Assembly (NCBI GenBank): GCA_028687915.1
Contig: JAQTZF010000001.1
Span: 546,634-610,633, forward strand
Direction of reading: 5' to 3'
Source of the DNA: Candidatus Daviesbacteria bacterium
Lineage (GTDB): Bacteria; Patescibacteriota; Microgenomatia; Daviesbacterales; UBA10151
DNA: 64,000 nt
Shown here: in pieces, positions 37,876 through 53,088 of the stretch
Position numbering within the stretch: the first letter of the stretch is position 1
Layout: each line of letters starts with the position of its first letter
Program-made: the position numbers and the translations under genes
The notes under the pieces: generated by a model
Database searches by the model: none
What the model saw: the letters and a program-made list of their open reading frames with translations, nothing else
What the model was told of the DNA's origin: nothing

Positions 37876-38658
37876 ATGATTTTAGAAAAATATAAAATAT
37901 TTAAGTATAAGGATTTGTTTTGGCAGCTCACACTTAGGGATATTAGAGCAAAATATAAACAATCAATACTGGGTTATTCCTGGGTAATATTAGTACCCCT
38001 GATTAACCTAACTGTTTTAAGTATTGTTTTTACTTTTGTTTTTAAAGTTCCTACAGGACCTGTTCCTTATCCAGTATATTTATTTACAGCCTTAGTTCCC
38101 TGGTTGTTTATGTCTAACGCAATAGTTGCAGCAACTGGTAGCGTTTTAGCTAATGCTTCCCTTGTTACAAAAATTTATTTACCCAGAGAAATTTTGCCTT
38201 TATCAGCTATAGCTTCAAAACTTGTAGATTTATTTTTGACTGCACTTATTTTAGGATTTTTTATGCTTGTATATGGTGTGCCGTTTCACGCAACAATATT
38301 ATTTGTACCATTTATATTATTAACTCAATTAATGCTAATAACTGGTGTTTCATTTATTTTATCAGCCAGTAATGTTTTTTACAGAGACATCGAACATGCA
38401 ATTGGTGTAATTTTAGGAGTGTGGATGTATTTAACTCCAGTTGTTTATTCTCCAGATTTAATCCCAGCAAATTTAAAAATCTTTTTTTATCTTAATCCAA
38501 TGAGTGGAATAATAGATGCTTACCGAGCAACTATTTTATATGGAGTTATTCCTATTTGGCCAGCATTTTTATATTCTTGTTTATTTTCTATAACTATTTT
38601 TATTGTTGGATTAATTTATTTTAGAAAAAATTCTAAGTATTTTGCAGAGGTTATTTAA
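37876..38658 (+). CDS. wzm: ABC-2 type polysaccharide export permease (Wzm/TagG-like)
   Basis: It has 6 TM helices. KYKQSILGYSWVILVPLINL is the ABC-2 N-terminal signature. Confidence 0.75.
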   Translation: MILEKYKIFKYKDLFWQLTLRDIRAKYKQSILGYSWVILVPLINLTVLSIVFTFVFKVPTGPVPYPVYLFTALVPWLFMSNAIVAATGSVLANASLVTKIYLPREILPLSAIASKLVDLFLTALILGFFMLVYGVPFHATILFVPFILLTQLMLITGVSFILSASNVFYRDIEHAIGVILGVWMYLTPVVYSPDLIPANLKIFFYLNPMSGIIDAYRATILYGVIPIWPAFLYSCLFSITIFIVGLIYFRKNSKYFAEVI

Positions 38659-38661
38659 AAT

Positions 38662-39396
38662 ATGAATGATAATATAGCGATAAACTTAGATAACGTTAGT
38701 AAGAGGTTTAAAAGAGGGCATAAACTTCTTTTAAAAGAGGCTTTACTTGATTTTTTTAGACCAACAAGACAAGAAGACTTTTGGGCTTTAAAGAATATTA
38801 GTTTTAAAGTTAAAAAAGGAGAAGCATTAGGAATAATCGGAACAAATGGGTCTGGAAAAAGTACAGTTTTAAAACTAATTGCCGGGGTTTTAAGTCCAAC
38901 CAAAGGAACAATTAGTGTTAATGGAAGAATAGGTCCCTTAATAGAATTAGGTGCGGGATTTCATCCTGAGTTAACTGGCAGAGAAAATATCTATTTAAAT
39001 GGAACAATCTTAGGTCTATCTATTAAAGAAATTAACGAGAAATTTAATGCAATTGTTAATTTTTCAGGGTTAGATGATTTTATTGATACTCCCGTAAAAC
39101 ATTATTCTTCTGGTATGTATATGAGACTTGGTTTTTCCATTGCTGTTCATGTTGAACCTGATATTTTATTAGTTGATGAAATTTTAGCAGTAGGGGATGC
39201 AGGTTTTCAAAAAAAATGTTTAGAGAAAATGAAAGAGTTCCATGATAAAGGAGTTACTATCATAATAATCTCGCATTCTGCTGACCTAATTAAATCGTTT
39301 TGTAAAAAAGCTATATTAATTAATCACGGAAAAATTGTAGTAATTGACTCAGTAGAAAAAGTAATTAATAAATATAGTAAATTAATTGATGGATAG
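38662..39396 (+). CDS. wzt: Polysaccharide export ABC ATPase (Wzt/TagH-like), nucleotide-binding domain only
   Basis: It has the Walker A motif GTNGSGKST, the signature SSGMYMRLGFS and Walker B LLVDE. At 244 aa it lacks a C-terminal carbohydrate-binding extension. Confidence 0.8.
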   Translation: MNDNIAINLDNVSKRFKRGHKLLLKEALLDFFRPTRQEDFWALKNISFKVKKGEALGIIGTNGSGKSTVLKLIAGVLSPTKGTISVNGRIGPLIELGAGFHPELTGRENIYLNGTILGLSIKEINEKFNAIVNFSGLDDFIDTPVKHYSSGMYMRLGFSIAVHVEPDILLVDEILAVGDAGFQKKCLEKMKEFHDKGVTIIIISHSADLIKSFCKKAILINHGKIVVIDSVEKVINKYSKLIDG

Positions 39397-39398
39397 AT

Positions 39399-42119
39399 AT
39401 GAAAAATAGCAAAGCAAAATTAGATTTTACCGGAGAAAGGTTAATTCCAGAGATAAATAAAGGGGAATCCTTTTACTATGAACACTTGGCTAGATACTTG
39501 TTTGCAAGTTCTTTTGTAAAGGGTAAGAGGGTTTTAGATGCGGGATGTGGTAGTGGATATGGAAGTAATATATTAGCAAGTTACGGAGGCGCAGCTAAGG
39601 TAACTGCAGTGGATCAGTCTAGTGAAGCAATAAACTATGCTTCAGATAAATATAAGCGTTCAAATATAGAATTTATTGTTAGTGATATATTAAAACTTGA
39701 TATTTCTAAGGATAAAGCTGAAGTTATTACTGCTTTTGAAATTATTGAACATCTTAAAGAGTATTCCTTATTCCTGGAAGTATTAAAAAGTTCATTAAAA
39801 CCAAATGGATTACTAATTGTTTCAACACCAAATAAAAATGCTTCTACTCAAGATAATCCTTATCATACACAAGAATTTACTCCAGAACAGTTTGTTAATC
39901 TTTTAAAAAAGTATTTTAAATTTGTAAACATTTTTTATCAAGGCTATGAATTTTCTCAAGTTATAAAATCAAATGAAAAAATTGATTTTAAATTAGAGGA
40001 AGATTATATTAAGTTGCAACAAGATGTTTATGGGCCTAAAGCCAATACTAAAAATTCACAATATTTAGTTGCAGTGTGTAGTAACACTAAGAATCAATTA
40101 CAAACAAAGACTGTTTCAGTAAATACTGATCGTGTGGATAGCTATGATTTAACTCAGGGTTTAGTTTCTTTGGAAAAGCAATTTTCTACTCTACATAAAT
40201 TTATTGAAAGCCTGAATGAAAGAAATAAAAGAACGGAATTTGAATTAGATAGTGTAAGAGGAGAGTTGGATTATATTAAGTATTCAAAATTTTTTATTTT
40301 ATGGCCATATTACATAAAAGTTAGAGATGTATTTAGGTCGTTCGCAAGTTTTATTTTTAAACTTAAATTAATTGCGAATTTGAATTCAAATTTTGACGCT
40401 TATCAAAAATGGTTTGCTATTAATTATCCTTCTAAGAAAAAATTACTTCAACAGCAAAAAGAAGCTGAAGGATTTAAACTGAAACCAAAAATTTCTATTA
40501 TAACACCAACTTTTAACACCCCGGAAAGGTTTTTAAGAGATTGTATTGAATCAGTTCAAAATCAAAGTTATCAAAATTTTGAACTTTGTATCGCGGATGA
40601 TGCTTCAACTGATCCAAAAGTGAGAGAAATTATTAGAGAATATGCTCATAAAGATAAGCGGATTAAATATATTTTTCGAAAAGAGAATGGTCATATATCA
40701 CAGGCTTCAAACTCGGCACTAGAAATTGCTACTGGTGGATATATTGGGTTACTTGATCATGATGATATATTATGGCCTAACGCATTATTCGAGCTAGTAA
40801 AAGCGCTTAATAATCATCCCAAAGCAGAGTTTTTCTATTCAGACGAAGATAAACTAGATGAAGATGGTAGAACACATGTAAACCCATTTTTTAAACCAGA
40901 TTGGAGCCCGGATTATTTAAGATCAATTAATTATATTACTCATTTTTCTGTATTAAAAAGATCACTGGTAAATAAAATAAATGGATTTAGAGTTGGTTTT
41001 GAGGGATCTCAGGATTTGGATTTATTTTTAAGGGCAACTAATCAAATTGATGATTCTTCAAAAATTATCCATATTCCTACAATTCTATACAGTTGGAGAA
41101 AATCTCCTTTTTCTACTGCTTCAGAAAAGAATGGACTTTCTGTTAAAAGTTATGCTTACAGAAATCAGCAAAAAAGTTTAGTAGAAGATTTAAAATTAAG
41201 AGGTTATGTAGGGAATGTTGTGCAAACAAAGAATTTAGGTAGTTGGAGAGTACGTTATGATATTATAGGTAATCCACTGGTCTCTATTATTATTCCTACT
41301 AAAAATCAATTTAGAAATATTTCCAATTGTTTGAATTCAATTATTCAAAAATCTACTTATCGTAATTTTGAATTAATTATTTTAGATACTGGGTCTACAG
41401 AATCAGGCGTTCGAGATTTTTATGATTTGATTAAGAAAAAGCATCCTAAAACGCAAATAATTAATTGGACTAATGAGTTTAATTTTTCCTCTGTTTCAAA
41501 TTTTGGTGCTGAAAAAGCAAAGGGTGAATATTTAGTATTTTTAAATAATGATACTGAGGTAATTACGCCTGATTGGATTGAAAGCTTATTAGAACATGCT
41601 CAGCGTAAGGAGGTAGGGGCTGTTGGGGCAAAATTATTGTATCCAGATAAAAAAATTCAACATTTGGGAGGAGTATTGGGGGTATGCACTAACAAAGAAA
41701 AAAAAGGATTTGCGGGGCATGCTTATAAATACATTCCATCAGAAACTTTCATAAATTTTGATTCTTATGCTATAAAAAATTATAGCTTTGTGACAGCTGC
41801 ATGTTTAATGGTTTCAAAAAAGAAATTTAAAGAAGTAGGCGGTTTTGATGAAAAATTTAAAATAGCTTTTAATGACATAGATCTATGTTTAAAATTATAC
41901 AAAGATAAGAAATATTTTAATTTAATTAATCCTAATGCAGAACTATTTCATAAAGAATCTGCAACCATTCAAACTATAGATAAAAAAGAGCGCGATACTA
42001 ATCTATGGAGAAACGAAACTTTATTTTTTCATAATAAGTGGGGAGAGGTGGTGAGTAAGGATCCTTTTTATAATCCTCATCTGACTAAGGATAAAGAGGA
42101 CTTTAGTGTTGGAGTATAA
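39399..42119 (+). CDS. Trifunctional fusion: N-terminal SAM methyltransferase, coiled-coil linker and two GT2 glycosyltransferase domains
   Basis: The methyltransferase motif I is VLDAGCGSGYGSN. A coiled-coil-like segment of about 100 aa follows. The two GT2 modules are marked by ISIITPTFNTPERFLRDCIESVQNQSY...ADDASTD and VSIIIPTKNQ...LDTGST, each with a DxD. Confidence 0.7.
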   Translation: MKNSKAKLDFTGERLIPEINKGESFYYEHLARYLFASSFVKGKRVLDAGCGSGYGSNILASYGGAAKVTAVDQSSEAINYASDKYKRSNIEFIVSDILKLDISKDKAEVITAFEIIEHLKEYSLFLEVLKSSLKPNGLLIVSTPNKNASTQDNPYHTQEFTPEQFVNLLKKYFKFVNIFYQGYEFSQVIKSNEKIDFKLEEDYIKLQQDVYGPKANTKNSQYLVAVCSNTKNQLQTKTVSVNTDRVDSYDLTQGLVSLEKQFSTLHKFIESLNERNKRTEFELDSVRGELDYIKYSKFFILWPYYIKVRDVFRSFASFIFKLKLIANLNSNFDAYQKWFAINYPSKKKLLQQQKEAEGFKLKPKISIITPTFNTPERFLRDCIESVQNQSYQNFELCIADDASTDPKVREIIREYAHKDKRIKYIFRKENGHISQASNSALEIATGGYIGLLDHDDILWPNALFELVKALNNHPKAEFFYSDEDKLDEDGRTHVNPFFKPDWSPDYLRSINYITHFSVLKRSLVNKINGFRVGFEGSQDLDLFLRATNQIDDSSKIIHIPTILYSWRKSPFSTASEKNGLSVKSYAYRNQQKSLVEDLKLRGYVGNVVQTKNLGSWRVRYDIIGNPLVSIIIPTKNQFRNISNCLNSIIQKSTYRNFELIILDTGSTESGVRDFYDLIKKKHPKTQIINWTNEFNFSSVSNFGAEKAKGEYLVFLNNDTEVITPDWIESLLEHAQRKEVGAVGAKLLYPDKKIQHLGGVLGVCTNKEKKGFAGHAYKYIPSETFINFDSYAIKNYSFVTAACLMVSKKKFKEVGGFDEKFKIAFNDIDLCLKLYKDKKYFNLINPNAELFHKESATIQTIDKKERDTNLWRNETLFFHNKWGEVVSKDPFYNPHLTKDKEDFSVGV

Positions 42120-43101
42120 AATGGTAGATGTTTCTGTAATAATTCCAAATTGGAACGGAGCAGATTTGCTATTTGATTGTCTAGTATCCTTAAAGAAACA
42201 GACATATAAGAATTTTGAAATAATTGTTGTAGACAATGGTTCAACAGACACTTCTGTAAATTTTATTAAAGAAAATTATCCAAAAATAAAGATAGTTATT
42301 TTAGATAGGAATTATGGATTTGCAAAAGCGATTAATAGTGGTGTTAAATTATCTAAAGCTAAGTATGTAGCTTTTTTAAATAATGACACAGAGGTAGATA
42401 AAAGCTGGTTAAATAATTTAGTAAAAACTATAGATAAACATCCTGAGGCTGCTTCGGTTGGATCAAAATTATTAAATTTTTATAACAGAAAAATTATTGA
42501 TGGAGTAGGTATTCAAATTAATGAGGTGGGACAGGCAAAATCAATTGGCTGGAATGAAAAAGACAAAGGTCAATACGAAAAAGAAATGTTAGTATTTGGT
42601 GTAACAGGAGGCGCTTCTCTTTTTCGGAGATCTATATTTATTAAAGTAGGAATGTTTGATGAAAACTATTTTATGTACTGCGAAGAAGTTGACTGGGCTT
42701 TTAGGGCACAGTTTTCAGGATACAAGGCAATTTATTGTCCGAATGCTATTGTTTATCATAAACATAAAATGTCCTCCAAAAAAACACCACAACATTTGGA
42801 ATATTGGCAATTTAGAAATATGACACAAACAATAATTAAAGATTTTCCAATGAATATCTTATTAAAACAAGGAAGATGGTTAAAAATAGTTTTGGTCCAT
42901 TTAAATACCTATATTTATATGTTTAAAAATGGTTTTTATTGGCCATCACTTTTAGCCGATTTTTGGATAATATTACACTTACCAATTCTTTTAAAAATGC
43001 GTTTTAGCATTCAGAGTTCCAAAAAGATTAAAGATGATGAAATCGAGAAATTTTTGTTTTCTAAAAATATTACATATTGGGGTTTATTAAAAAAGAAATA
43101 A
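42106..43101 (+). CDS. Family 2 glycosyltransferase
   Basis: VSVIIPNWNGADLLFDCLVSLKKQTYKNFEIIVVDNGSTDTS is a GT2 domain. Confidence 0.7.
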   Translation: MLEYKMVDVSVIIPNWNGADLLFDCLVSLKKQTYKNFEIIVVDNGSTDTSVNFIKENYPKIKIVILDRNYGFAKAINSGVKLSKAKYVAFLNNDTEVDKSWLNNLVKTIDKHPEAASVGSKLLNFYNRKIIDGVGIQINEVGQAKSIGWNEKDKGQYEKEMLVFGVTGGASLFRRSIFIKVGMFDENYFMYCEEVDWAFRAQFSGYKAIYCPNAIVYHKHKMSSKKTPQHLEYWQFRNMTQTIIKDFPMNILLKQGRWLKIVLVHLNTYIYMFKNGFYWPSLLADFWIILHLPILLKMRFSIQSSKKIKDDEIEKFLFSKNITYWGLLKKK

Positions 43102-43108
43102 TTTTTTA

Positions 43109-43849
43109 TTAAGATTTGTAAGTTACTTTACGTGTAACTTGTATTGAGTTTCCTGCAATATCTGTGGCAATAATAGTGATATTGTTCTCTCCTTCATTTA
43201 TATCTATGGTTCTGGAGAATTTGCCATCAGAATCTACAATTGTTCTGGTTCCATTTATAGTAATGGAGATATCTTTGTCGGAATTTGTTTTTCCAGTGAC
43301 AGTAACCTTTTTGTCTCCTCCATTAATTTCTTGATTATCTGTGGGAGATTGAATCTCCAATATAGGTTTCTCGTTTGAATAAACAATTAATATTGGTTTT
43401 GAAGAAAGGCTTTTATTGCCATTACTGTCAATTGTTATTCCTGAAATTTTATTAGTACCTAAACTTAGATCAATAGGTTCACTCACAAAGCTTCCGTCAC
43501 CACTTGTATCAATAGATGATTTTAGTTCTCCGTCTAAGTATATTTCTACTTTTGTATTTGAAAGAGAATAGCCTTTGACAAGGATTTGTGCTGACGATGT
43601 TGCTTCATAAGGAATATTTAAAACAGGAGGAGCAAGGGATGCGTTTTCTGTGATTGATTCTTGAGATTTAACAGGTTCTTTAAAGCGGTTCAACAAAGAA
43701 AGGCTACCTATAAAGTTTGGGATAAACCAGGCAACTAATATATATAGTAAAACTGCACAAATTATTAAGGTTAAATAAAATCTCTTTTTGCTTTTTCTTT
43801 CCAGTCTTCTTGATAAAAATGATTTATTTGAATATTTTTTACGTTTCAT
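43109..43849 (-). CDS. Membrane-anchored surface protein with tandem Ig-like/beta-sandwich repeats
   Basis: An N-terminal TM helix is followed by repeated segments of the form KVTVTGKTNSDKDISITINGT / NKISGITIDSNGN, which are typical of bacterial Ig-like domains. Confidence 0.4.
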   Translation of the reverse strand: MKRKKYSNKSFLSRRLERKSKKRFYLTLIICAVLLYILVAWFIPNFIGSLSLLNRFKEPVKSQESITENASLAPPVLNIPYEATSSAQILVKGYSLSNTKVEIYLDGELKSSIDTSGDGSFVSEPIDLSLGTNKISGITIDSNGNKSLSSKPILIVYSNEKPILEIQSPTDNQEINGGDKKVTVTGKTNSDKDISITINGTRTIVDSDGKFSRTIDINEGENNITIIATDIAGNSIQVTRKVTYKS

Positions 43850-43883: not shown

Positions 43884-43955
43884 AAGATAGGCTTGTGCTG
43901 CGCAAGCTTAGCACACTTCCTTCTTTATCACACCTTGTCTCCTCATTGCTTTCGG

Positions 43956-44027
43956 AGCCAGCGGTGAGAATTGAACTCACGACCCATCCCTTACGAAGGG
44001 AGCGCTCTACCGCTGAGCTACGCTGGC
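43956..44027 (-). tRNA. tRNA-Thr (anticodon CGU)
   Basis: Reverse-complemented, it folds as acceptor GCCAGCG/CGCTGGC, D-arm GCTC-AGCGGTA-GAGC, anticodon loop TTCGTAA, T-arm GTGAG-TTCAATT-CTCAC, discriminator U. Confidence 0.75.
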
Positions 44028-44133: not shown

Positions 44134-45777
44134 ATGTTTTCTTATTCAACCTTAATATATATTATTTCCTCAGCTGTAACCTATGCTCTAATTTACTTTC
44201 ATCTATCTACTGCAAATTTTCAGCAAATAACAGCTGTATTACTTTTTGCGATATTAATATTGTTAGGGCGAATTATGATGGTTCGCAATGATTTTGTATT
44301 TGGAAAGTTAGGGTACTTTATTGGATTGTTTTTAAGTTCATTTTTTGTGCAGATATTAATTTTGGCTACAGGGGGAATATATAGTTCTTTTTTGATTTTG
44401 ATACATCTTTTTACTTTAGGATCTAGCTTTTTGGTAAATATTTCTTCATCAATGGTTTTTTTAGCATTAACACTATCAATTTTAGTTACAAGCATATATT
44501 CAAATCCGCAAATGTTAGCTATTTTTAAAGATGATCCCGGGTCAGCAGCTTTATACTTTATTTCATTTATAGTCATTCTTCCAATGGCGCAATATATTGT
44601 TTATAGATATCACCTAAAAGATACGATCTTTAAAGTTATAAAAGAATATGCAGAAACAGGGGAACAAAGAGAAGCCTCGATACTAAATAATATTGCTGAA
44701 TTAGTTGTAGTTACAGATAAAAATTTACAAATTCTTTCAATCAACGAAGCTTTAGAACAATCTCTTAATATTGTTCAGGAAGACTGTATAGGCCGCTCTA
44801 TATTAGAAATAGTGCCTCTAAAGAATGAGAAAAATGAAAGTGTCACTATGGATGAATTATCTATTTCTCAAGTATTAGCAGATAAGGCAACCAGAATTAT
44901 GGATGGGTTTTACTACAAAGAGCTAAAAAGCTCTAAACTTCGTTCTATTGCTATTCAAATTCGTCCTGTTTTAGATTCTAACGGGGTAGTTAGTCAGATT
45001 GTCTTTTTAATAACTAACCCCCGAAGAAATGCTGAGCTGCAACGACATGCTGATTTACAAGAAGCATTTACAAAACAAAAATTAATGTTTGAAGATTTAA
45101 AAAGCACATTAATTAAGGCAGGGTTAAATAATATTATCTCTAAGGTTGAACTTTTTAATAAATCAGAGACTGACTTGGTGTTGGCTTATGAAATTCAGGA
45201 TCATTCAATAAAACCTGTAATAAGTCCGGATGATATTGCTCTTATTGGTAAACAGGCTGTTGCCAGTAAACAAGCATTGGCACAACATTTAGGTGTAAGT
45301 ATTCAATTTATTTTGCCAAAAGAAGAAATAGCTGAAGCTAGTCGGTTAAGTTTAATTGACACTCATGTGGAAGCAGAAGCTTTGCCTTTATCATCTTTTA
45401 CAGCTCCTGTAGATAAAGCATGGTTTATGGTTTTGCTTCAAAAGTTATTAGATATTAGTTTGCTACTTGCCTCAGAGAAAACTAATCAACAAATAGACCT
45501 GTTAGTCAGACACTCTGTTTCAGATGAAAATATAATAGAGTTGGTGATATCTACACCATACCAAAGTATTTCTGATCAAGAAATAGATAAGCTTTTTATT
45601 CAATATTATCCCGATTTTACAACCAGAAGTAATCTTTATTTAGGAAGTGGTTTAGAGGGTTATATTGCTAAAAACATTATTAATCATTTGAATATCCCTT
45701 TTGTGGCACAATTTAATCCAGCAAAGTCTATACTTACATTTACTTTTACAATTACAAAAACACTTGATTTGCTATAA
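44134..45777 (+). CDS. Membrane sensor protein with PAS domain and histidine-kinase-like ATPase C-terminus
   Basis: About 5 N-terminal TM helices are followed by a PAS-like segment (NIAELVVVTDKNLQILSINEAL...CIGRSILEI). The C-terminal region has a G2-box-like GSGLEGYIAKNII. No clear H-box was seen. Confidence 0.45.
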   Translation: MFSYSTLIYIISSAVTYALIYFHLSTANFQQITAVLLFAILILLGRIMMVRNDFVFGKLGYFIGLFLSSFFVQILILATGGIYSSFLILIHLFTLGSSFLVNISSSMVFLALTLSILVTSIYSNPQMLAIFKDDPGSAALYFISFIVILPMAQYIVYRYHLKDTIFKVIKEYAETGEQREASILNNIAELVVVTDKNLQILSINEALEQSLNIVQEDCIGRSILEIVPLKNEKNESVTMDELSISQVLADKATRIMDGFYYKELKSSKLRSIAIQIRPVLDSNGVVSQIVFLITNPRRNAELQRHADLQEAFTKQKLMFEDLKSTLIKAGLNNIISKVELFNKSETDLVLAYEIQDHSIKPVISPDDIALIGKQAVASKQALAQHLGVSIQFILPKEEIAEASRLSLIDTHVEAEALPLSSFTAPVDKAWFMVLLQKLLDISLLLASEKTNQQIDLLVRHSVSDENIIELVISTPYQSISDQEIDKLFIQYYPDFTTRSNLYLGSGLEGYIAKNIINHLNIPFVAQFNPAKSILTFTFTITKTLDLL

Positions 45778-45839: not shown

Positions 45840-46508
45840 ATGGCGAGAGCTAAACAATCAACAATTAGTGTTTTGAGGCATTTTTCTTTTGCTCAAAATA
45901 GCAATGTGAAATTAGCTGTTTTGACCTCTGTTTTAAGCTTGGTTTTATTCTTTACAGTTGCATCTTTATCACCTTTTAAAAATATGCTGCTGTCATCGCT
46001 TTTTCCCAAACAAGCATCATACGCTTCAATTACTTCTACACCAGCTCCTACCACTGGTTTAAATTTATTGAAAAATGGTTCTTTTGAAGAAGGAGTGGCT
46101 CCCTGGTTTCTAAATGTTACACCTCCAGCAGCAGGTAGTTTATTATCAGCAACAAATACCGCAATTGACGGGAGATCTTCTGCTACAGTCAATATTAACT
46201 CTAATGCATCGCAATCTTGGTATGTACAATTCCGCCAGGACAACCTTTCTCTTCTTGCTGGTAAATCTTATACTCTTACTTTTTGGGCAAAAGCAGATAA
46301 GCGATTAAAAATTGATTATGCATTACAGCAAATGGAGAGTCCTTATACAGTATATTTTGGGAAGTCAATAAATTTATCAACAAAATGGCAAAAGTATAGT
46401 TACTTTTACAATGCGACAGCTAACTTAAGTAATGTTTTTCTCGGCTTTAACTTAGCTAGTACAAAAGCCAGTATTTGGATAGATAATGTTTCACTTGTTT
46501 CAAACTAA
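45840..46508 (+). CDS. Secreted carbohydrate-binding module protein (CBM4/9/22-like)
   Basis: A signal/TM region is followed by LLKNGSFEEGVAPW...SWYVQFRQDNLSLLAGKSYTLTFWAKAD, the classic CBM_4_9 beta-sandwich pattern. Confidence 0.55.
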   Translation: MARAKQSTISVLRHFSFAQNSNVKLAVLTSVLSLVLFFTVASLSPFKNMLLSSLFPKQASYASITSTPAPTTGLNLLKNGSFEEGVAPWFLNVTPPAAGSLLSATNTAIDGRSSATVNINSNASQSWYVQFRQDNLSLLAGKSYTLTFWAKADKRLKIDYALQQMESPYTVYFGKSINLSTKWQKYSYFYNATANLSNVFLGFNLASTKASIWIDNVSLVSN

Positions 46509-46512
46509 AAAT

Positions 46513-49500
46513 ATGGATTCTTTACAGAAAGCTGATAATCGTTTGCATAGGTTTATAAGAAGATTTTCAAAAAAGCACCTTATTCTTTTTGTTCTGATTC
46601 TGTCTGTTATTTCTATATCAATGGTTGTGTTTATTGGTAATCAACTAAACCCCTCTGTTTCTATTGCCTCTGAGAGCTTAATTTATAGTGACTCACTATC
46701 CTCTGGTTGGTATAACTGGTCATGGAGTGCTAATATAGATTTCTTTTCTACCACTATAGTTAGGTCTGGAAATACTTCAATTGCCTTTACACCACAAGCC
46801 TGGGGTGGATTATCTCCAGCTATGGCCAGTGGAACACTGGATACAAATCCCTATACCAATTTACGTTTTTATATTAATGGAGGATCTGCTGGTGGACAAC
46901 GATTAAATATTGAAATTCGTAATGGAGATATAGTTGGTCCATCAATTAATATTAATAATTATATTGAAGGGGGTAGTATTGCAGCTAATCAATGGAGAAA
47001 AGTAGATATTCCATTAAGTATATTAAAAGGGAGTGTTTTAACTAATGGGATAATTAATAGAATTGCTTTAAAAGAAGCACTTGGTATTTCTGAATCAACT
47101 GTATATATTGATGATCTTGGCTTTTATACTGCAGCTGTTTTAACTCCTACTCCAACTTTAACCTCAACCCCTACAGTAACCCCAATACCTACCAATACTG
47201 TTACTCCTTCTCCTACCTCCAGTATCTCTTCACCAGTAATTTATTCTGATTCTTTAGCAAAAGGATGGGCAAACTGGTCGTGGAGTTCAACAGTTAACCT
47301 GTCTTCAACAAAGAATTCTTATTCAGGCAATAGATCTATAGCCTTTACCCCTGCAGGTGGGGGTGGATTTTCTCCTGCCTTAACAAGCGGTTCTTTTGAT
47401 ATTTCTCCATATAACCAAATTACCTTTTATATAAACGGAGGAACAGTTGGAAATCAATTATTTGCACTTGAATTACGAGATAGTTCAACTATTGGACCAA
47501 GGGTGCCGATAAATAATTATATTGAAGGAGGTAGAGTTGCAGCTAATCAATGGAAAAAGGTGGCTATCCCACTAAGTGTTTTAAAGGGTTCTGTTTTAGG
47601 AAATTCAATAAACAGGTTAGCTTTGGTGTCGACAAGCGGATCTTCTCAGGACACTGTTTATCTTGAAGATATAATTTTTGTGAATGGGTCGGATATTATT
47701 ACTCCTCTACCAACCTCCACTATCATTCCTACTATAACGCCTACACCAACCTTAAGCATAACTCCCACAAGAATAAATACACCAACCCCAACAAGTGTAA
47801 TTACTGTTTCTCCTTCTCCAACAGTCACAGCACCACCAATAACTGAAGTATGTACAGCTTCACTTGCAGCTTGGTCTGCATCTGCAAACCCGGTAATTGA
47901 AGGAACTTTAACTAACTTAAATGTAATTACCTCTGGTAACTGTGATGGAAAAACAGTGTCTTTTGAGGTTTGGGCGGCAACCGGTGTTGCAGGGGTTGGA
48001 GATACCAGATCGCGTGTTTCGCCATCCAATGCTGTAATTGTGAATAATCAGGCTACTGGTTCTTGGGTAGCAGAATATATTCAGCCTGCACAAGTAGGTG
48101 TATTTCAGCAAATAGTTTCTTTCTTTGAAAATATTATTACACCACAAGCAGCTACTGCTTCAGAGTATTACTTTAAGGTAAATATGGTTGGTGATACACA
48201 TACAGTAACTTCTGCAGATCCAAAAATGGTTGTTAATCAGCAACCACCTGTACCCAGTGGCGATGTAGTTAGTATTAATACTGAAAGTACAGTAGGGACA
48301 ATCAGTGCTGATTTTTATGGTAACAATTTAACTCCGTATGGTGGACCATCTATGACTAAAAATCAAAATTTTATTAATAAAGTTGCTCCCTTGAAATACA
48401 ACACAATAAGAATTCCTGGTGGGTATGAGGCTGATGGTTATCATTGGTGGAATGGAACAATGCAAGTTTTAGCTGACAGAGGTTATATGTGGACTGGCAC
48501 TCCTCCACAGCTTGTAGATTACCTATACTTTACAGAATCAGTTGGAGCAAAGCCTATGATTACCGTTAATTACAGAAGCGGTACTCCCAGAGAAGCTGCT
48601 AACTGGGTGGAATATATGAATAGTCCGGTGCCTGCAAATCCTGGTGCAGGATGGACCACATCCTCTTATGCTGGTAATCAGGCAGCTCCAAAAGGCTATT
48701 TTGCTTGGTTAAGAGCTCAACCGGGGCCAACAACAACATGCAAAGTTTGTGCTGGACATCCAGCTCCTTATGGGGCAAAGTATTGGGAAGTTGGTAATGA
48801 AATTTACTATCATAGGGATGGAAACAGAAATTTAATAGATAATCCAGAACATTATGCTGTTGCCTATGTTCCGTTTGCTGATGCTATGAAAGCAGTAGAT
48901 CCTTCTATAAAAGTAGGCTTTGTTATGGAAGCTTATGATAAATATGTAGGTTCCTGGACTGATAGATCAATAAAGGCATTGGCTGCCAATAATACTCTTG
49001 GAAAGGTAGACTTTCTTGTTGTTCATTGGTATAGATATTGGGATGATGGTTCATATAATACATGGGGTATTGAACGTCAGCAGAATGCGGCGTATGGGCA
49101 TAATGATTTTGTAAAATACGCAGGTTCTTACCCTAAGATTGCAGCAGATTGGATGAGAGGATTGCTTGAGGCTGCTTCTCCGGGTAGCTCTAATAGAATT
49201 GAGTTAAATTTGACGGAGTGGGGGCCAAATTCCGGTGAACCCTGTGATTGGGATGTCTTAAGTATATACAGCCATTTATTTGCCATGCGAACCCTGGCAG
49301 AGGCACAGTTGTCAAATTATTTTTCTACAACCTACTGGAATATTAACCAAGGTACTAGTAATTTCTCTATGATCCAAGATAATTATCAAGTTGGACCAAT
49401 TTACTGGGCATTTGACATGATGAAAGATTTTGGAAGAGGTGGAGATAAACTGGTTTCTGCTTCTTCTGGTAATCCAAATGTTTATACTTATGCTTCAAAA

Positions 49501-51099
49501 CTAAGTAATGGGTCTTTAAGTATTTTGTTACTTAATAATAGTAGTAATTCTTCAAATATGACTGTTAAATTATCCGGGTTTACCCCATCCGGTACTGCAA
49601 CACTTCGACAATATGATCAGGCTCTTTTGGGAACGAGTTTTAAGGAGTATCCAAAAGATTGTTCTCAGAATCAACCCGCTTTACCTCAGGATTGTTGTAC
49701 TCACGGAGCAACCAACCGAAACGGTGGACCTCAAACACCACCCAGACAATCATCTTTAAATGGTATTGGTAATCAGTTTAATATTTCATTGCCAGCAGAT
49801 AGTTCAACTATTTTAGTGATACCATCATCATCGGGAACTGTAACACCCACTCTCACATTAACACCAACAATAACTCAAACTTCCACTCCGGTACCCACTT
49901 TAACTACTACTCCTGCACCAACCTCTCCTCCAACTGGGAGTATGTCTCCTAATATGATAATTTCGCGAGGTAAAACAGTATCTGCTTCATCTGGAGATGG
50001 ACAAAGCCTGGTTAATGGAATTTATAATGATTATGGTTGGAGACCTGGAATTCCTACTGCTTCCAGTCCTGCCTGGATAGCAATTAATATAGGATCTGGA
50101 CCATCCAGATTATTATTAAATTGGACTAATACAGCTAGCTATAATTACACAGATACAGGTTATGGAACCCCAAGTGACTATGTAATTCAAACATCTGGTA
50201 ATTCAACAAATGGAAGAGATGGAACATGGTCAAATGTGGTAACTGTAGCTGCAAATAATGTTAGAAATAGAGCTCACAGCTTTGATTTTAGTGGTAAAAG
50301 CTGGGTGAGGTTATATATTACAAAGACTACTGCAAGCAGTTGGAATAATATGTATGGAGTTGCTTTGGATGAAATTGATATTCATGATGTTTCACGTTCA
50401 TCTTCAGATACTTGGTTTTTTATGGGTGATAGCCTTACCGCAAATGACAATCGATCGAATCAGCCTGATTATGCAGCTAGTATTAATGCCTTTAATTCCA
50501 GTTATTATCCAGCCGAAATTAATGGTGGGATTGGATTTGAAACCAGTGCGAATGGTGTTTCACATATTGATAATTGGCTTTCATTAAATCCTGATATGAA
50601 ATATTGGGCAATTAATTACGGAGGAAATGATGCTGCAGGGAATAATTCAAATACTACGAATTTTAGAAATAACATGCAAATAATTATTAATAAAATTAAA
50701 GCAGCAGGCAAGATTCCTGTGATTGCCAGAATTCATTATATTGCTGATGGAAATCATAATAATATAGCTGCTTTTAATACAGTTATTGATGATTTAGCTA
50801 GGACAAATGGTTTAATCCCAGGGCCGGATTTATATACCTGGTTTTATAACCATCAAAATGAATTAGGTCCTGATCGTTTACATCCAAATAGTTTAGGATC
50901 AGTCTCTATTAACAGATTATGGTCAGAAAGCATGAGAGGACTTTATACAAATGCTGGTTCTGCAAGTACAAGCACTGTTGCCAGCACGACAAATAATGGT
51001 TTTGGAATTCAAACAATTACAGATTTTGGTCAGACAGCTGTTCAAACTATACAAGATTTTGCAACTCAAGTAATCCAACTTTATAATCAACCAAAATAG
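46513..51099 (+). CDS. Giant membrane-anchored multidomain polysaccharide-active enzyme
   Basis: - An N-terminal TM helix anchors the protein.
- Two CBM-like beta-sandwich repeats of about 190 aa follow, each with the pattern YSDSL..GW.NWSWS...FYINGG...NNYIEGG..AANQW.KV.IPLS.LKGSVL.
- Pro/Thr-rich linkers (TPTPTLTSTPTVTPIPT and TPTLTLTPTITQTSTPVPT) separate the modules.
- A clan GH-A (beta/alpha)8 glycoside hydrolase carries YWEVGNE and LNLTEWGP.
- An F5/8 type C (discoidin) domain is present.
- A C-terminal SGNH/GDSL esterase carries FFMGDSLT, GGNDA and DRLHPN.
- The ATG at 46513 is preferred over 46486. Confidence 0.7.
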   Translation: MDSLQKADNRLHRFIRRFSKKHLILFVLILSVISISMVVFIGNQLNPSVSIASESLIYSDSLSSGWYNWSWSANIDFFSTTIVRSGNTSIAFTPQAWGGLSPAMASGTLDTNPYTNLRFYINGGSAGGQRLNIEIRNGDIVGPSININNYIEGGSIAANQWRKVDIPLSILKGSVLTNGIINRIALKEALGISESTVYIDDLGFYTAAVLTPTPTLTSTPTVTPIPTNTVTPSPTSSISSPVIYSDSLAKGWANWSWSSTVNLSSTKNSYSGNRSIAFTPAGGGGFSPALTSGSFDISPYNQITFYINGGTVGNQLFALELRDSSTIGPRVPINNYIEGGRVAANQWKKVAIPLSVLKGSVLGNSINRLALVSTSGSSQDTVYLEDIIFVNGSDIITPLPTSTIIPTITPTPTLSITPTRINTPTPTSVITVSPSPTVTAPPITEVCTASLAAWSASANPVIEGTLTNLNVITSGNCDGKTVSFEVWAATGVAGVGDTRSRVSPSNAVIVNNQATGSWVAEYIQPAQVGVFQQIVSFFENIITPQAATASEYYFKVNMVGDTHTVTSADPKMVVNQQPPVPSGDVVSINTESTVGTISADFYGNNLTPYGGPSMTKNQNFINKVAPLKYNTIRIPGGYEADGYHWWNGTMQVLADRGYMWTGTPPQLVDYLYFTESVGAKPMITVNYRSGTPREAANWVEYMNSPVPANPGAGWTTSSYAGNQAAPKGYFAWLRAQPGPTTTCKVCAGHPAPYGAKYWEVGNEIYYHRDGNRNLIDNPEHYAVAYVPFADAMKAVDPSIKVGFVMEAYDKYVGSWTDRSIKALAANNTLGKVDFLVVHWYRYWDDGSYNTWGIERQQNAAYGHNDFVKYAGSYPKIAADWMRGLLEAASPGSSNRIELNLTEWGPNSGEPCDWDVLSIYSHLFAMRTLAEAQLSNYFSTTYWNINQGTSNFSMIQDNYQVGPIYWAFDMMKDFGRGGDKLVSASSGNPNVYTYASKLSNGSLSILLLNNSSNSSNMTVKLSGFTPSGTATLRQYDQALLGTSFKEYPKDCSQNQPALPQDCCTHGATNRNGGPQTPPRQSSLNGIGNQFNISLPADSSTILVIPSSSGTVTPTLTLTPTITQTSTPVPTLTTTPAPTSPPTGSMSPNMIISRGKTVSASSGDGQSLVNGIYNDYGWRPGIPTASSPAWIAINIGSGPSRLLLNWTNTASYNYTDTGYGTPSDYVIQTSGNSTNGRDGTWSNVVTVAANNVRNRAHSFDFSGKSWVRLYITKTTASSWNNMYGVALDEIDIHDVSRSSSDTWFFMGDSLTANDNRSNQPDYAASINAFNSSYYPAEINGGIGFETSANGVSHIDNWLSLNPDMKYWAINYGGNDAAGNNSNTTNFRNNMQIIINKIKAAGKIPVIARIHYIADGNHNNIAAFNTVIDDLARTNGLIPGPDLYTWFYNHQNELGPDRLHPNSLGSVSINRLWSESMRGLYTNAGSASTSTVASTTNNGFGIQTITDFGQTAVQTIQDFATQVIQLYNQPK

Positions 51100-52413: not shown

Positions 52414-53088
52414 TTAGCGTGGGATTTTTAACACCATTCCTGGTTGGATGAGATCAGGGTTTGCGATATTGTTTGCTTCAGCGAGTTTGTTGAATTGCAT
52501 AATATCACCATAAGCTCTTCCAGATATTTTTGATAACCAGTCGCCTTCAACTACTGTATATGTATTTCCAGTAATTTTTTCACCCCAAGTTGTTTGGTTC
52601 TCTGAACCTCCTGTTGCTATTTCATTTGTGGTTGAGGCAGATGAAGTTGCAGTTTGAGTTATAGTTGGGGTTGCAGCTGCAGTTGTTTCTTCAAGCTTAG
52701 GAATTTCTAAAACTTGTCCGGTATTAATGGAGTCTGCATTAGTTAAATTATTAGCTTTAGTTATCTCAGTATATTTAAATCCATTATTATAGTATTTTTG
52801 AGCTATTGTAAATAAAGTATCTCCATTCTTTACTGTGTATTTTCCTGGTAAATTATCAGGTGTTACATCAGCCTGGGCTGTTTCTTCTATTTGATTAGAA
52901 GGACCAATGGTAGCTTTGTTTGTTTTAAAATAGTTAAATACTAAAATTCCAGCAATTACTACTATTAATAAACCCAAAACTAAACTTAAATAAGATTGAT
53001 CTAGTTTAAGTTGTTCTTGAAGTTTTTGTAATAATGATTGGTTTTTGTTTGTTATTTCGTTGTTAACAGTTTTTTTAGATCTTGGCAA
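52414..53088 (-). CDS. LysM-domain peptidoglycan-binding protein (2 LysM repeats), membrane-anchored
   Basis: YTVKNGDTLFTIAQKYY and YTVVEGDWLSKISGRAYGD...VLKIPR are LysM motifs. An N-terminal TM helix and a Thr/Ala-rich linker are present. Confidence 0.7.
   Translation of the reverse strand: MPRSKKTVNNEITNKNQSLLQKLQEQLKLDQSYLSLVLGLLIVVIAGILVFNYFKTNKATIGPSNQIEETAQADVTPDNLPGKYTVKNGDTLFTIAQKYYNNGFKYTEITKANNLTNADSINTGQVLEIPKLEETTAAATPTITQTATSSASTTNEIATGGSENQTTWGEKITGNTYTVVEGDWLSKISGRAYGDIMQFNKLAEANNIANPDLIQPGMVLKIPR

Follow-up and report, generated by a model that had tools for sequence, protein, structure and literature searches.

A predicted exported multi-module glycoside hydrolase and SGNH esterase encoded by a Candidatus Daviesbacteria bacterium

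What would a bacterium of the candidate phyla radiation (CPR) degrade with a single polypeptide that joins a predicted glycoside hydrolase (GH) to a predicted esterase? The gene that raises this question lies at 46513..51099 on the forward strand of the window, by which we mean the whole 64,000-nucleotide stretch analysed here (positions 546,634 to 610,633 of contig JAQTZF010000001.1 from a Candidatus Daviesbacteria bacterium). We consider it moderately probable, judging from sequence and models built on it, that the product is an exported, six-module, bifunctional carbohydrate-active enzyme that would both cleave and deacetylate a decorated hemicellulose-type glycan in the surroundings of the cell. 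Its six modules can be assigned to defined kinds, the predicted catalytic residues of both enzymes are intact, and the architecture is conserved and recurrent. The export topology, the specificity for acetyl groups, the choice between exo and endo cleavage and the substrate are our inferences.

A single long open reading frame (ORF) at 46486..51099 (+) encodes 1,537 amino acids (aa) and ends in a TAG stop at 51097-51099; residue numbers throughout are counted on this longest ORF, in which position 46513 is Met10. A start at 46513, giving a protein of 1,528 aa, is the more likely one because the NCBI record PHQ59_03160 (a hypothetical protein of a Candidatus Daviesbacteria metagenome-assembled genome, MAG) is 1,528 aa long, because P0002, the sole homolog of full length (52% identity; its sequencing run and sample are independent), begins at the same Met, and because a start at the upstream ATG (46486) would overlap with the preceding gene, whose stop falls 4 nt 5' of 46513. 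The original prediction, which had placed a 1,537-aa protein at 46513-51099, was right that the ORF is real, but its length and coordinates disagree by nine residues. From the N terminus, the protein carries an anchor or signal, two CBM8-like carbohydrate-binding modules (CBMs), an uncharacterised module that we term module X, a GH51-like glycoside hydrolase, a CBM32-like domain and an SGNH esterase, with Pro/Thr linkers between. The original prediction had called all five of the kinds it named correctly (CBM-like repeats, a clan GH-A hydrolase, a discoidin domain, an SGNH esterase and Pro/Thr linkers), and the four motifs that it quoted are all found (WEVGNE at 767-772, TEWG at 910-913, GDSLT at 1314-1318 and DRLHPN at 1463-1468); it overlooked the sixth module, at 454-589. 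The parts are of known kinds and their combination is rare, and an exact peptide-pattern scan of the whole protein against GTDB species representatives found no close relative.

The central region, residues 590-1112 (48253..49821, +), was assigned by profile, AlphaFold model and Foldseek to a GH51-like core of clan GH-A. An exhaustive search with 50% clustering returned 2,431 cluster representatives at E <= 1e-3, and in an alignment of 41 sequences E768, G770, N771, E772, Y790 and H847 are invariant, with E911 present in 39. The family profile matched Thermotoga GH51 arabinofuranosidases at full length (E 5e-62, 213 bits) and scored far lower on GH44 (75 bits), GH79 (67), GH39 (55) and then GH30; the single GH sequence reached GH51 at just E 7e-9, across two short stretches. 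A precomputed PF22848 (ASD1_dom) annotation is also listed for the protein. The AlphaFold (AF2) model (predicted local distance difference test, pLDDT, 85.5; predicted template-modelling score, pTM, 0.90) shows a barrel of alternating strands and helices with a beta-sandwich after it, and Foldseek ranked GH51 first (E 2.5e-28, template-modelling score, TM, 0.67-0.73), then GH44 and GH79, with all of the top 50 PDB matches falling in these three clan GH-A families. The predicted acid/base, E772 (48799-48801, +), aligns to E172 of TmAFase and the predicted nucleophile, E911 (49216-49218, +), to E281; in the model, E183 (E772) comes shortly after a strand (domain residues 177-180) and E322 (E911) sits inside another (317-324). 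Profile, model and Foldseek agree on the (beta/alpha)8 barrel and conserved Glu pair behind the clan GH-A call, and both of the glutamates that such a call places at the ends of strands 4 and 7 are present. Two Cys-containing insertions in the core, at ~744-760 (~48714-48765; …PGPTTTCKVC…) and ~1054-1082 (~49645-49730; …DCSQNQPALPQDCC…), are absent from P0002, and the second overlaps a low-confidence region of the model (domain residues 472-488).

Nine residues are conserved in GH51 arabinofuranosidases (E29, R69, N74, N174, E175, H244, Y246, E294 and Q351; PMC4666033). The core keeps seven of them, as R642, N771, E772, H847, Y849, E911 and Q955, and because only these seven are kept we do not take it to be a typical GH51. 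The description of this core as a polysaccharide backbone hydrolase is not supported: the nearest family, GH51, consists mainly of exo-alpha-L-arabinofuranosidases, which are debranching enzymes, no curated model exceeds its cut-off and two of the nine GH51 residues are missing. An alternative interpretation retains the earlier idea in full, with an endo-acting backbone hydrolase of endoglucanase or endoxylanase type and an esterase that clears acetyl groups ahead of it. GH51 does include endoglucanases and an arabinofuranosidase/endo-xylanase that uses the same Glu pair (PMC4666033), the second-best fold match is to GH44 endoglucanases and xyloglucanases, the CBM8-like module elsewhere accompanies endo-acting GH44, GH26 and GH5 enzymes, and two residues of the arabinofuranosidase set have been lost; however, the other seven are kept and the best profile and fold matches are all exo-arabinofuranosidases, so that we regard endo action on a backbone as possible but doubtful. 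A search of the literature on 'GH51-like' families and on glycoside hydrolases of Daviesbacteria found nothing specific.

The second putative enzyme is an SGNH/GDSL esterase domain at residues 1305-1485 (50398..50940, +), assigned by Lipase_GDSL_2, alignment and fold, and in front of it stands a CBM32-like (discoidin, F5/8 type C-like) beta-sandwich at residues 1153-1304 (49942..50397, +), assigned from its model and Foldseek. Lipase_GDSL_2 (Pfam) scored 45.4 bits on the SGNH domain against a cut-off of 32.9. The catalytic S1316 (50431-50433, +) lies in SGNH block I and H1466 (50881-50883, +), together with D1463, in block V; these three residues are invariant in 42 of 42 homologs, and each of the oxyanion residues, G1348 of block II and N1381 of block III, is found in 41 of 42. 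The esterase call of the original prediction is upheld by this intact Ser-Asp-His triad and its oxyanion residues. Replacement of the block II Gly by F1351 was considered as a mark of a dead esterase and rejected, because family members differ at that column (G 29, F 4, S 3, R 3), whereas conservation is seen at G1348 and G1350.

By fold, the SGNH half resembles TesA and Axe2, among others (TM 0.7-0.8 relative to target), and the N-terminal half superposes on the chitosan-binding CBM32 structures 4zz5/4zxe (TM 0.70-0.73, 23-24% identity) and on a Clostridium perfringens CBM32 (CpGH89 CBM32-4). The discoidin call was therefore right at fold level (4zz5, TM 0.73); by sequence, the CBM32-like domain of this protein has no Pfam or PDB match, and F5_F8_type_C (Pfam) is reached by 4 of 42 cassette homologs. 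In the two-domain model the CBM32-like domain packs directly against the SGNH domain, and the confidence of that model (pLDDT 94.6, pTM 0.92) argues for a fixed packing of the two. The unit at 1153-1485 has at least 193 homologs; the matches listed share 37-62% identity with it and cover 86-100% of its length. The majority stand alone as proteins of 360-440 aa, and Sorangium genomes supply many of them. The CBM32-SGNH pair is a ready-made cassette of wide distribution. Foldseek matched the whole cassette best to carbohydrate esterases that pair a CBM with an SGNH domain: the acetyl-xylan esterases (AcXEs) PbeAcXE and CspAcXE (7toh/7toj), a polyvinyl-alcohol esterase, Ape1 and the CE2 structure 2waa. 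In AcXE enzymes the CBM supplies ligand-binding residues and GNSI is the family signature (PMC9105624); membership of the FjoAcXE-type family, an unclassified carbohydrate esterase family, was rejected here, the motif being GDSLT (G-D-S-I-T in most homologs) and the identity 14%. Membership of carbohydrate esterase (CE) family CE2 was likewise rejected, with no CE2_N Pfam match, no CE2 structure reached by sequence or family profile, and a likeness confined to fold (2waa, E 3e-9, 12% identity, TM 0.39). Profile and sequence searches for CE2 or AcXE structures returned none except a marginal 7toj (E 0.19).

The binding side of the protein begins with two N-terminal repeats, ~56-225 and ~243-410, which are 54% identical over ~170 aligned residues (alignment score 474 versus 37 +/- 6 for shuffles) and both align end to end with DdCBM8 (PDB 7t7y). 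We delimit CBM8-like module 1 at residues 61-214 (46666..47127, +; E 2.6e-16) and module 2 at residues 249-400 (47230..47685, +; E 3.9e-13). The two CBM-like repeats of the original prediction are borne out as CBM8-like, but each spans ~150 aa and not the 190 given there; a Pfam scan of both yielded only sub-threshold CBM30 and CIA30 matches. DdCBM8, a module of a Dictyostelium GH9 endoglucanase and the founding CBM8 structure, binds cellulose and soluble glucomannan, and its conserved ligand residues are W572, W574, Y600 and Q686 (PMC9079177). At these positions module 1 has W78, W80, W106 (versus Y600) and K196 (versus Q686), three of the four being kept or aromatic, and module 2 retains W264 and W266 and has G292 and V381 at the other two. 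Elsewhere, the CBM8-like module precedes GH44 domains in four proteins (P0010, P0015, P0016 and P0025) and occurs in proteins that carry GH26 and GH5 (P0003 and P0012); in a 769-aa protein of locus L024, on a contig labelled Saccharimonadales (CPR), it stands ahead of a GH of the same family as the core described here.

Comparison with P0002 bears on whether these parts form a working enzyme at all. Module by module, identity to P0002 is 75% and 59% for the CBM8-like modules, 60% for module X, 74% and 77% for the two domains of the cassette and 35% for the GH core. The far greater divergence of the core than of its flanks (59-77%), together with its unique Cys-containing insertions modelled with low confidence, could be taken to mean that the gene encodes no working bifunctional enzyme, being either chimeric by assembly or coding for a protein of binding or adhesion whose catalytic domains have decayed. 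We find this very improbable: the catalytic residues of both enzymes are all intact, the GH-core and cassette models are both of high confidence, and an assembly chimera in particular was rejected because P0002, which comes from an independent sample, has its modules in the same order, and because G+C at the third codon position (GC3) is uniform along the gene.

The history of the GH core may differ from that of the protein around it. With P0026 (locus L082), whose 559 aa comprise only the GH and whose contig has 64% GC, the core shares 43-47% identity. A neighbour-joining tree pairs the two without P0002 in 93 of 100 bootstraps and unites all three in one clade in 100 of 100. This grouping could reflect a module exchange or horizontal gene transfer, or else long-branch attraction. 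G+C is 0.37-0.40 at 46001-50000, against ~0.32 elsewhere in the window, with the excess at codon position 2. Recent horizontal transfer was rejected as its source because GC3 (0.22) equals that of neighbouring genes, and the position-2 excess goes with a protein rich in Ser, Thr, Pro, Ala and Gly. The GH family is found in Streptomyces, other actinomycetes, Ktedonobacteria, Verrucomicrobia and two Promethearchaeota MAGs, being abundant in Streptomyces, Ktedonobacteria and Verrucomicrobia; its members elsewhere carry CBM2, CBM3, CBM60, CBM96 and ricin domains, and one Streptomyces copy has an LPXTG-type anchor. The relatives on Promethearchaeota (Asgard) contigs (loci L006 and L007) are 32% identical over residues 6-279; these contigs are short and their labels are as binned. 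A bolder reading, which we would put forward as unlikely, makes the core part of a large uncharacterised clan GH-A family, sister to GH51 and of new specificity, that is, as the two independent fusions would suggest, the obligate partner of the discoidin-SGNH deacylase cassette, the CPR GH module having been laterally exchanged with a high-GC bacterium inside a conserved scaffold.

The combination of modules recurs in P0009, a 2,495-aa protein from a Logan assembly, with a cassette-like region at 578-895, a member of the same GH family at 1305-1855 (hhalign probability 99.9%) and a module-X-like region at 2090-2241. The order differs from that of the Daviesbacteria protein, and P0009 represents an independent second fusion of the cassette with the GH family, which argues independently that the cassette, the GH family and module X work together.

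How, then, might the modules act on a common substrate? In the reading that we favour, the CBMs would bind the enzyme to a glycan, either insoluble or polymeric, and the SGNH domain would strip O-acyl groups, most likely acetyl, with S1316 as nucleophile, H1466/D1463 completing the triad and G1348/N1381 forming the oxyanion hole; the packed CBM32-like domain probably aids sugar-chain binding by the SGNH domain. The GH core would then cut a glycosidic bond by the retaining double displacement of clan GH-A, with E772 as acid/base and E911 as nucleophile, and the released products would feed a fermentative, small-genome cell. The likeliest target would be a decorated, acetylated hemicellulose-type polysaccharide of the xylan, xyloglucan, glucomannan or beta-glucan class. 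A hemicellulose-type substrate is suggested because the partners of every module in other proteins point to it: GH44, GH26 and GH5 for the CBM8-like module and CBM2, CBM3 and CBM60 for the GH family, with the cellulose and glucomannan binding of DdCBM8, the Sorangium cassettes and an adjacent CBM_4_9 gene as further context. Where the original prediction had offered either a host cell wall or environmental hemicellulose, these module partners lean towards plant-type or hemicellulosic glycans.

Several observations weigh against this reading. No curated model reaches its cut-off on the GH core, the best Pfam model being GH39 at 15.5 bits against 26, and the NCBIfam ArfA model scores 32 bits against a cut-off of 625. 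Among the GH51 residues, Y647 stands in place of N74 (27 of 41 clade members have Ser there) and E29 lacks an aligned counterpart (T616 in the MAFFT alignment). The CBM8 ligand residues are kept only in part, three of four in module 1 and two of four in module 2, and the nearest structural neighbours of the CBM32-like domain bind chitosan. In sequence, the SGNH domain is nearest to TesA-type lysophospholipase/thioesterases and a 'putative polyesterase' (9otv) and to no CE family, so non-carbohydrate esters are possible substrates. Finally, the neighbouring genes form a surface-glycan biosynthesis cluster and do not encode sugar uptake.

This last point leads to the main rival, in which the target is a cell-envelope glycan of a bacterial host or of the cell itself, such as O-acetylated peptidoglycan, a secondary cell-wall polymer, a capsule or an S-layer glycan. 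The enzyme gene adjoins a surface-glycan biosynthesis cluster in both of the known loci: GT2 glycosyltransferases and a Glucodextran_B-domain protein lie upstream (37876-43849 in the window) and a LysM protein of 223-224 aa downstream (52414-53088 in the window) both here and at the P0002 locus (L001). L001 also has ABC2_membrane and ABC_tran exporter genes, and the two window ORFs at 37876-39396 are of matching size. The synteny may, however, be mere shared ancestry of two related genomes, and the LysM gene lies on the other strand. Another match of the cassette model is to Ape1, a peptidoglycan O-acetylesterase (8gkd, 4k3u; E ~3e-9), but it is weak (TM ~0.4, 9% identity) and the domain topology of Ape1 differs. 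The chitosan bound by the nearest structural neighbours of the CBM32-like domain is a GlcN polymer, which would suit an envelope glycan, whereas no GH or cassette homolog was seen with peptidoglycan-type partner domains, and the CBM8-like module and the GH family are partnered by plant-cell-wall modules (GH44, GH26, GH5, CBM2, CBM3 and CBM60). Patescibacteria have been described as growing on host cell surfaces (PMC11665869), and under such a scheme the esterase of a presumably episymbiotic CPR cell would remove protective O-acetyl groups before the hydrolase cuts, for attachment or feeding or for remodelling. The neighbourhood and the CPR lifestyle make action on an envelope glycan plausible; weighing both sides, we judge such a target improbable.

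Immediately upstream of the enzyme gene, a CBM_4_9 gene (45840..46508, +; E 9.7e-17) encodes a 222-aa protein whose N terminus contains a hydrophobic segment. The CBM_4_9 stop lies 4 nt before 46513, which makes co-transcription of the two genes probable; P0002 has no CBM_4_9 counterpart upstream. Before it, at 44134-45777, lies the gene for a 547-aa protein with a multi-pass hydrophobic N terminus and a PAS domain (Pfam), in which Pfam recognised no kinase domain and which may be a sensor linked to the locus; a tRNA-Thr gene (43954-44027) stands ahead of it. Promoter and terminator scans returned sites no more numerous than in shuffled sequence.

The route out of the cell would depend on a lone, strongly hydrophobic segment at residues 32-51 (46579..46638, +; Kyte-Doolittle mean 3.1 over 19 residues), assigned by hydropathy only, which follows a basic, Lys/Arg-rich N terminus and could act as a signal anchor or form the core of a long, cleaved signal peptide; a Ser-Ile-Ala/Ser site after the helix is a candidate signal-peptidase site. 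The transmembrane anchor of the original prediction is present as a hydrophobic helix, but its anchoring role is a matter of hydropathy and a cleaved signal peptide is possible. We infer that the protein is exported and either tethered by the N-terminal helix or secreted. Three Pro/Thr/Ser linkers confirm those called earlier, at residues 217-254, 405-453 and 1113-1157; between the modules as delimited here they are assigned the segments 47128..47229, 47686..47844 and 49822..49941 (+). At the other end, residues 1486-1537 (50941..51096, +), read from sequence, comprise a Ser/Thr-rich stretch and a C-terminal peptide of ~30 aa (…GIQTITDFGQTAVQTIQDFATQVIQLYNQPK) that has a recognisable counterpart in P0002 and no match to known sorting signals.

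Module X, delimited at residues 454-589 (47845..48252, +) by alignment with homologs, is an uncharacterised module of ~115 aa whose region is 135 aa here, the Daviesbacteria protein and P0002 carrying a ~17-residue insertion. A Cys pair, two W, one Y and one F are invariant in an alignment with its copies in other giant modular proteins. Tandem copies are present in P0005 (four), P0013 (three) and P0011 (two, with a precomputed dockerin domain), and P0018 has one copy. Pfam returned only a sub-threshold DUF6143, and PDB searches by sequence and by profile found no relative; from its context, module X would be a binding or spacer beta-module.

These findings overturn nothing, because degraders of plant biomass have well-known multi-modular bifunctional hydrolase/esterases, and because CPR bacteria, Microgenomates especially, have been reported with GHs that act on hemicellulose side chains (PMC5581439). 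That the gene is a large investment for a minimal organism is a fair remark, at 4.6 kb on a contig of 1,096,538 bp (1.10 Mb); its weight is lessened by those same reports. The locus does point to three populous, uncharacterised module families, namely the GH51-like clade, the CBM32-SGNH cassette and module X, and the two independent fusions that link them can guide the choice of substrates when the families are characterised. It also offers a testable candidate for extracellular sugar acquisition by a Daviesbacteria cell with a ~1.1-Mb contig.

Set beside known systems, each part of the protein combines a clear likeness with a clear departure. The two N-terminal repeats align end to end with DdCBM8 and both conserve its W-x-W ligand pair, whereas Q686 is lost in both and the third aromatic is retained in repeat 1 only (W106). 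The GH core shares with the GH51 arabinofuranosidases (TmAFase, 3ug3/3s2c; Geobacillus AbfA, 1pz3) the (beta/alpha)8 barrel with a C-terminal beta-sandwich, an acid/base Glu in a G-N-E motif and a nucleophile that aligns with TmAFase E281 (E294 in AbfA numbering); unlike them, it is only ~17% identical, falls below every curated cut-off and sits in a predicted exported multi-module protein, the cited GH51 enzymes being described without a signal peptide. The CBM32-like domain has the discoidin beta-sandwich fold of DD1/DD2 from the Paenibacillus IK-5 chitosanase/glucanase (4zxe, 4zz5) but is packed against the esterase, where those are independent modules. The cassette as a whole resembles the AcXEs (FjoAcXE, PbeAcXE and CspAcXE) and CE2 enzymes (CjCE2, 2waa; CtCE2, 2wab) in having an N-terminal beta-sandwich tightly packed on an SGNH domain with a Ser-Asp-His triad and a Gly/Asn oxyanion hole; it differs in that identity is 12-14% and whole-model TM 0.39-0.48, single domains matching while their mutual orientation does not, and in that its N-terminal domain is CBM32-like. 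The CE2 esterase of Clostridium thermocellum is likewise fused to a glycoside hydrolase, as Cel5C-CE2.

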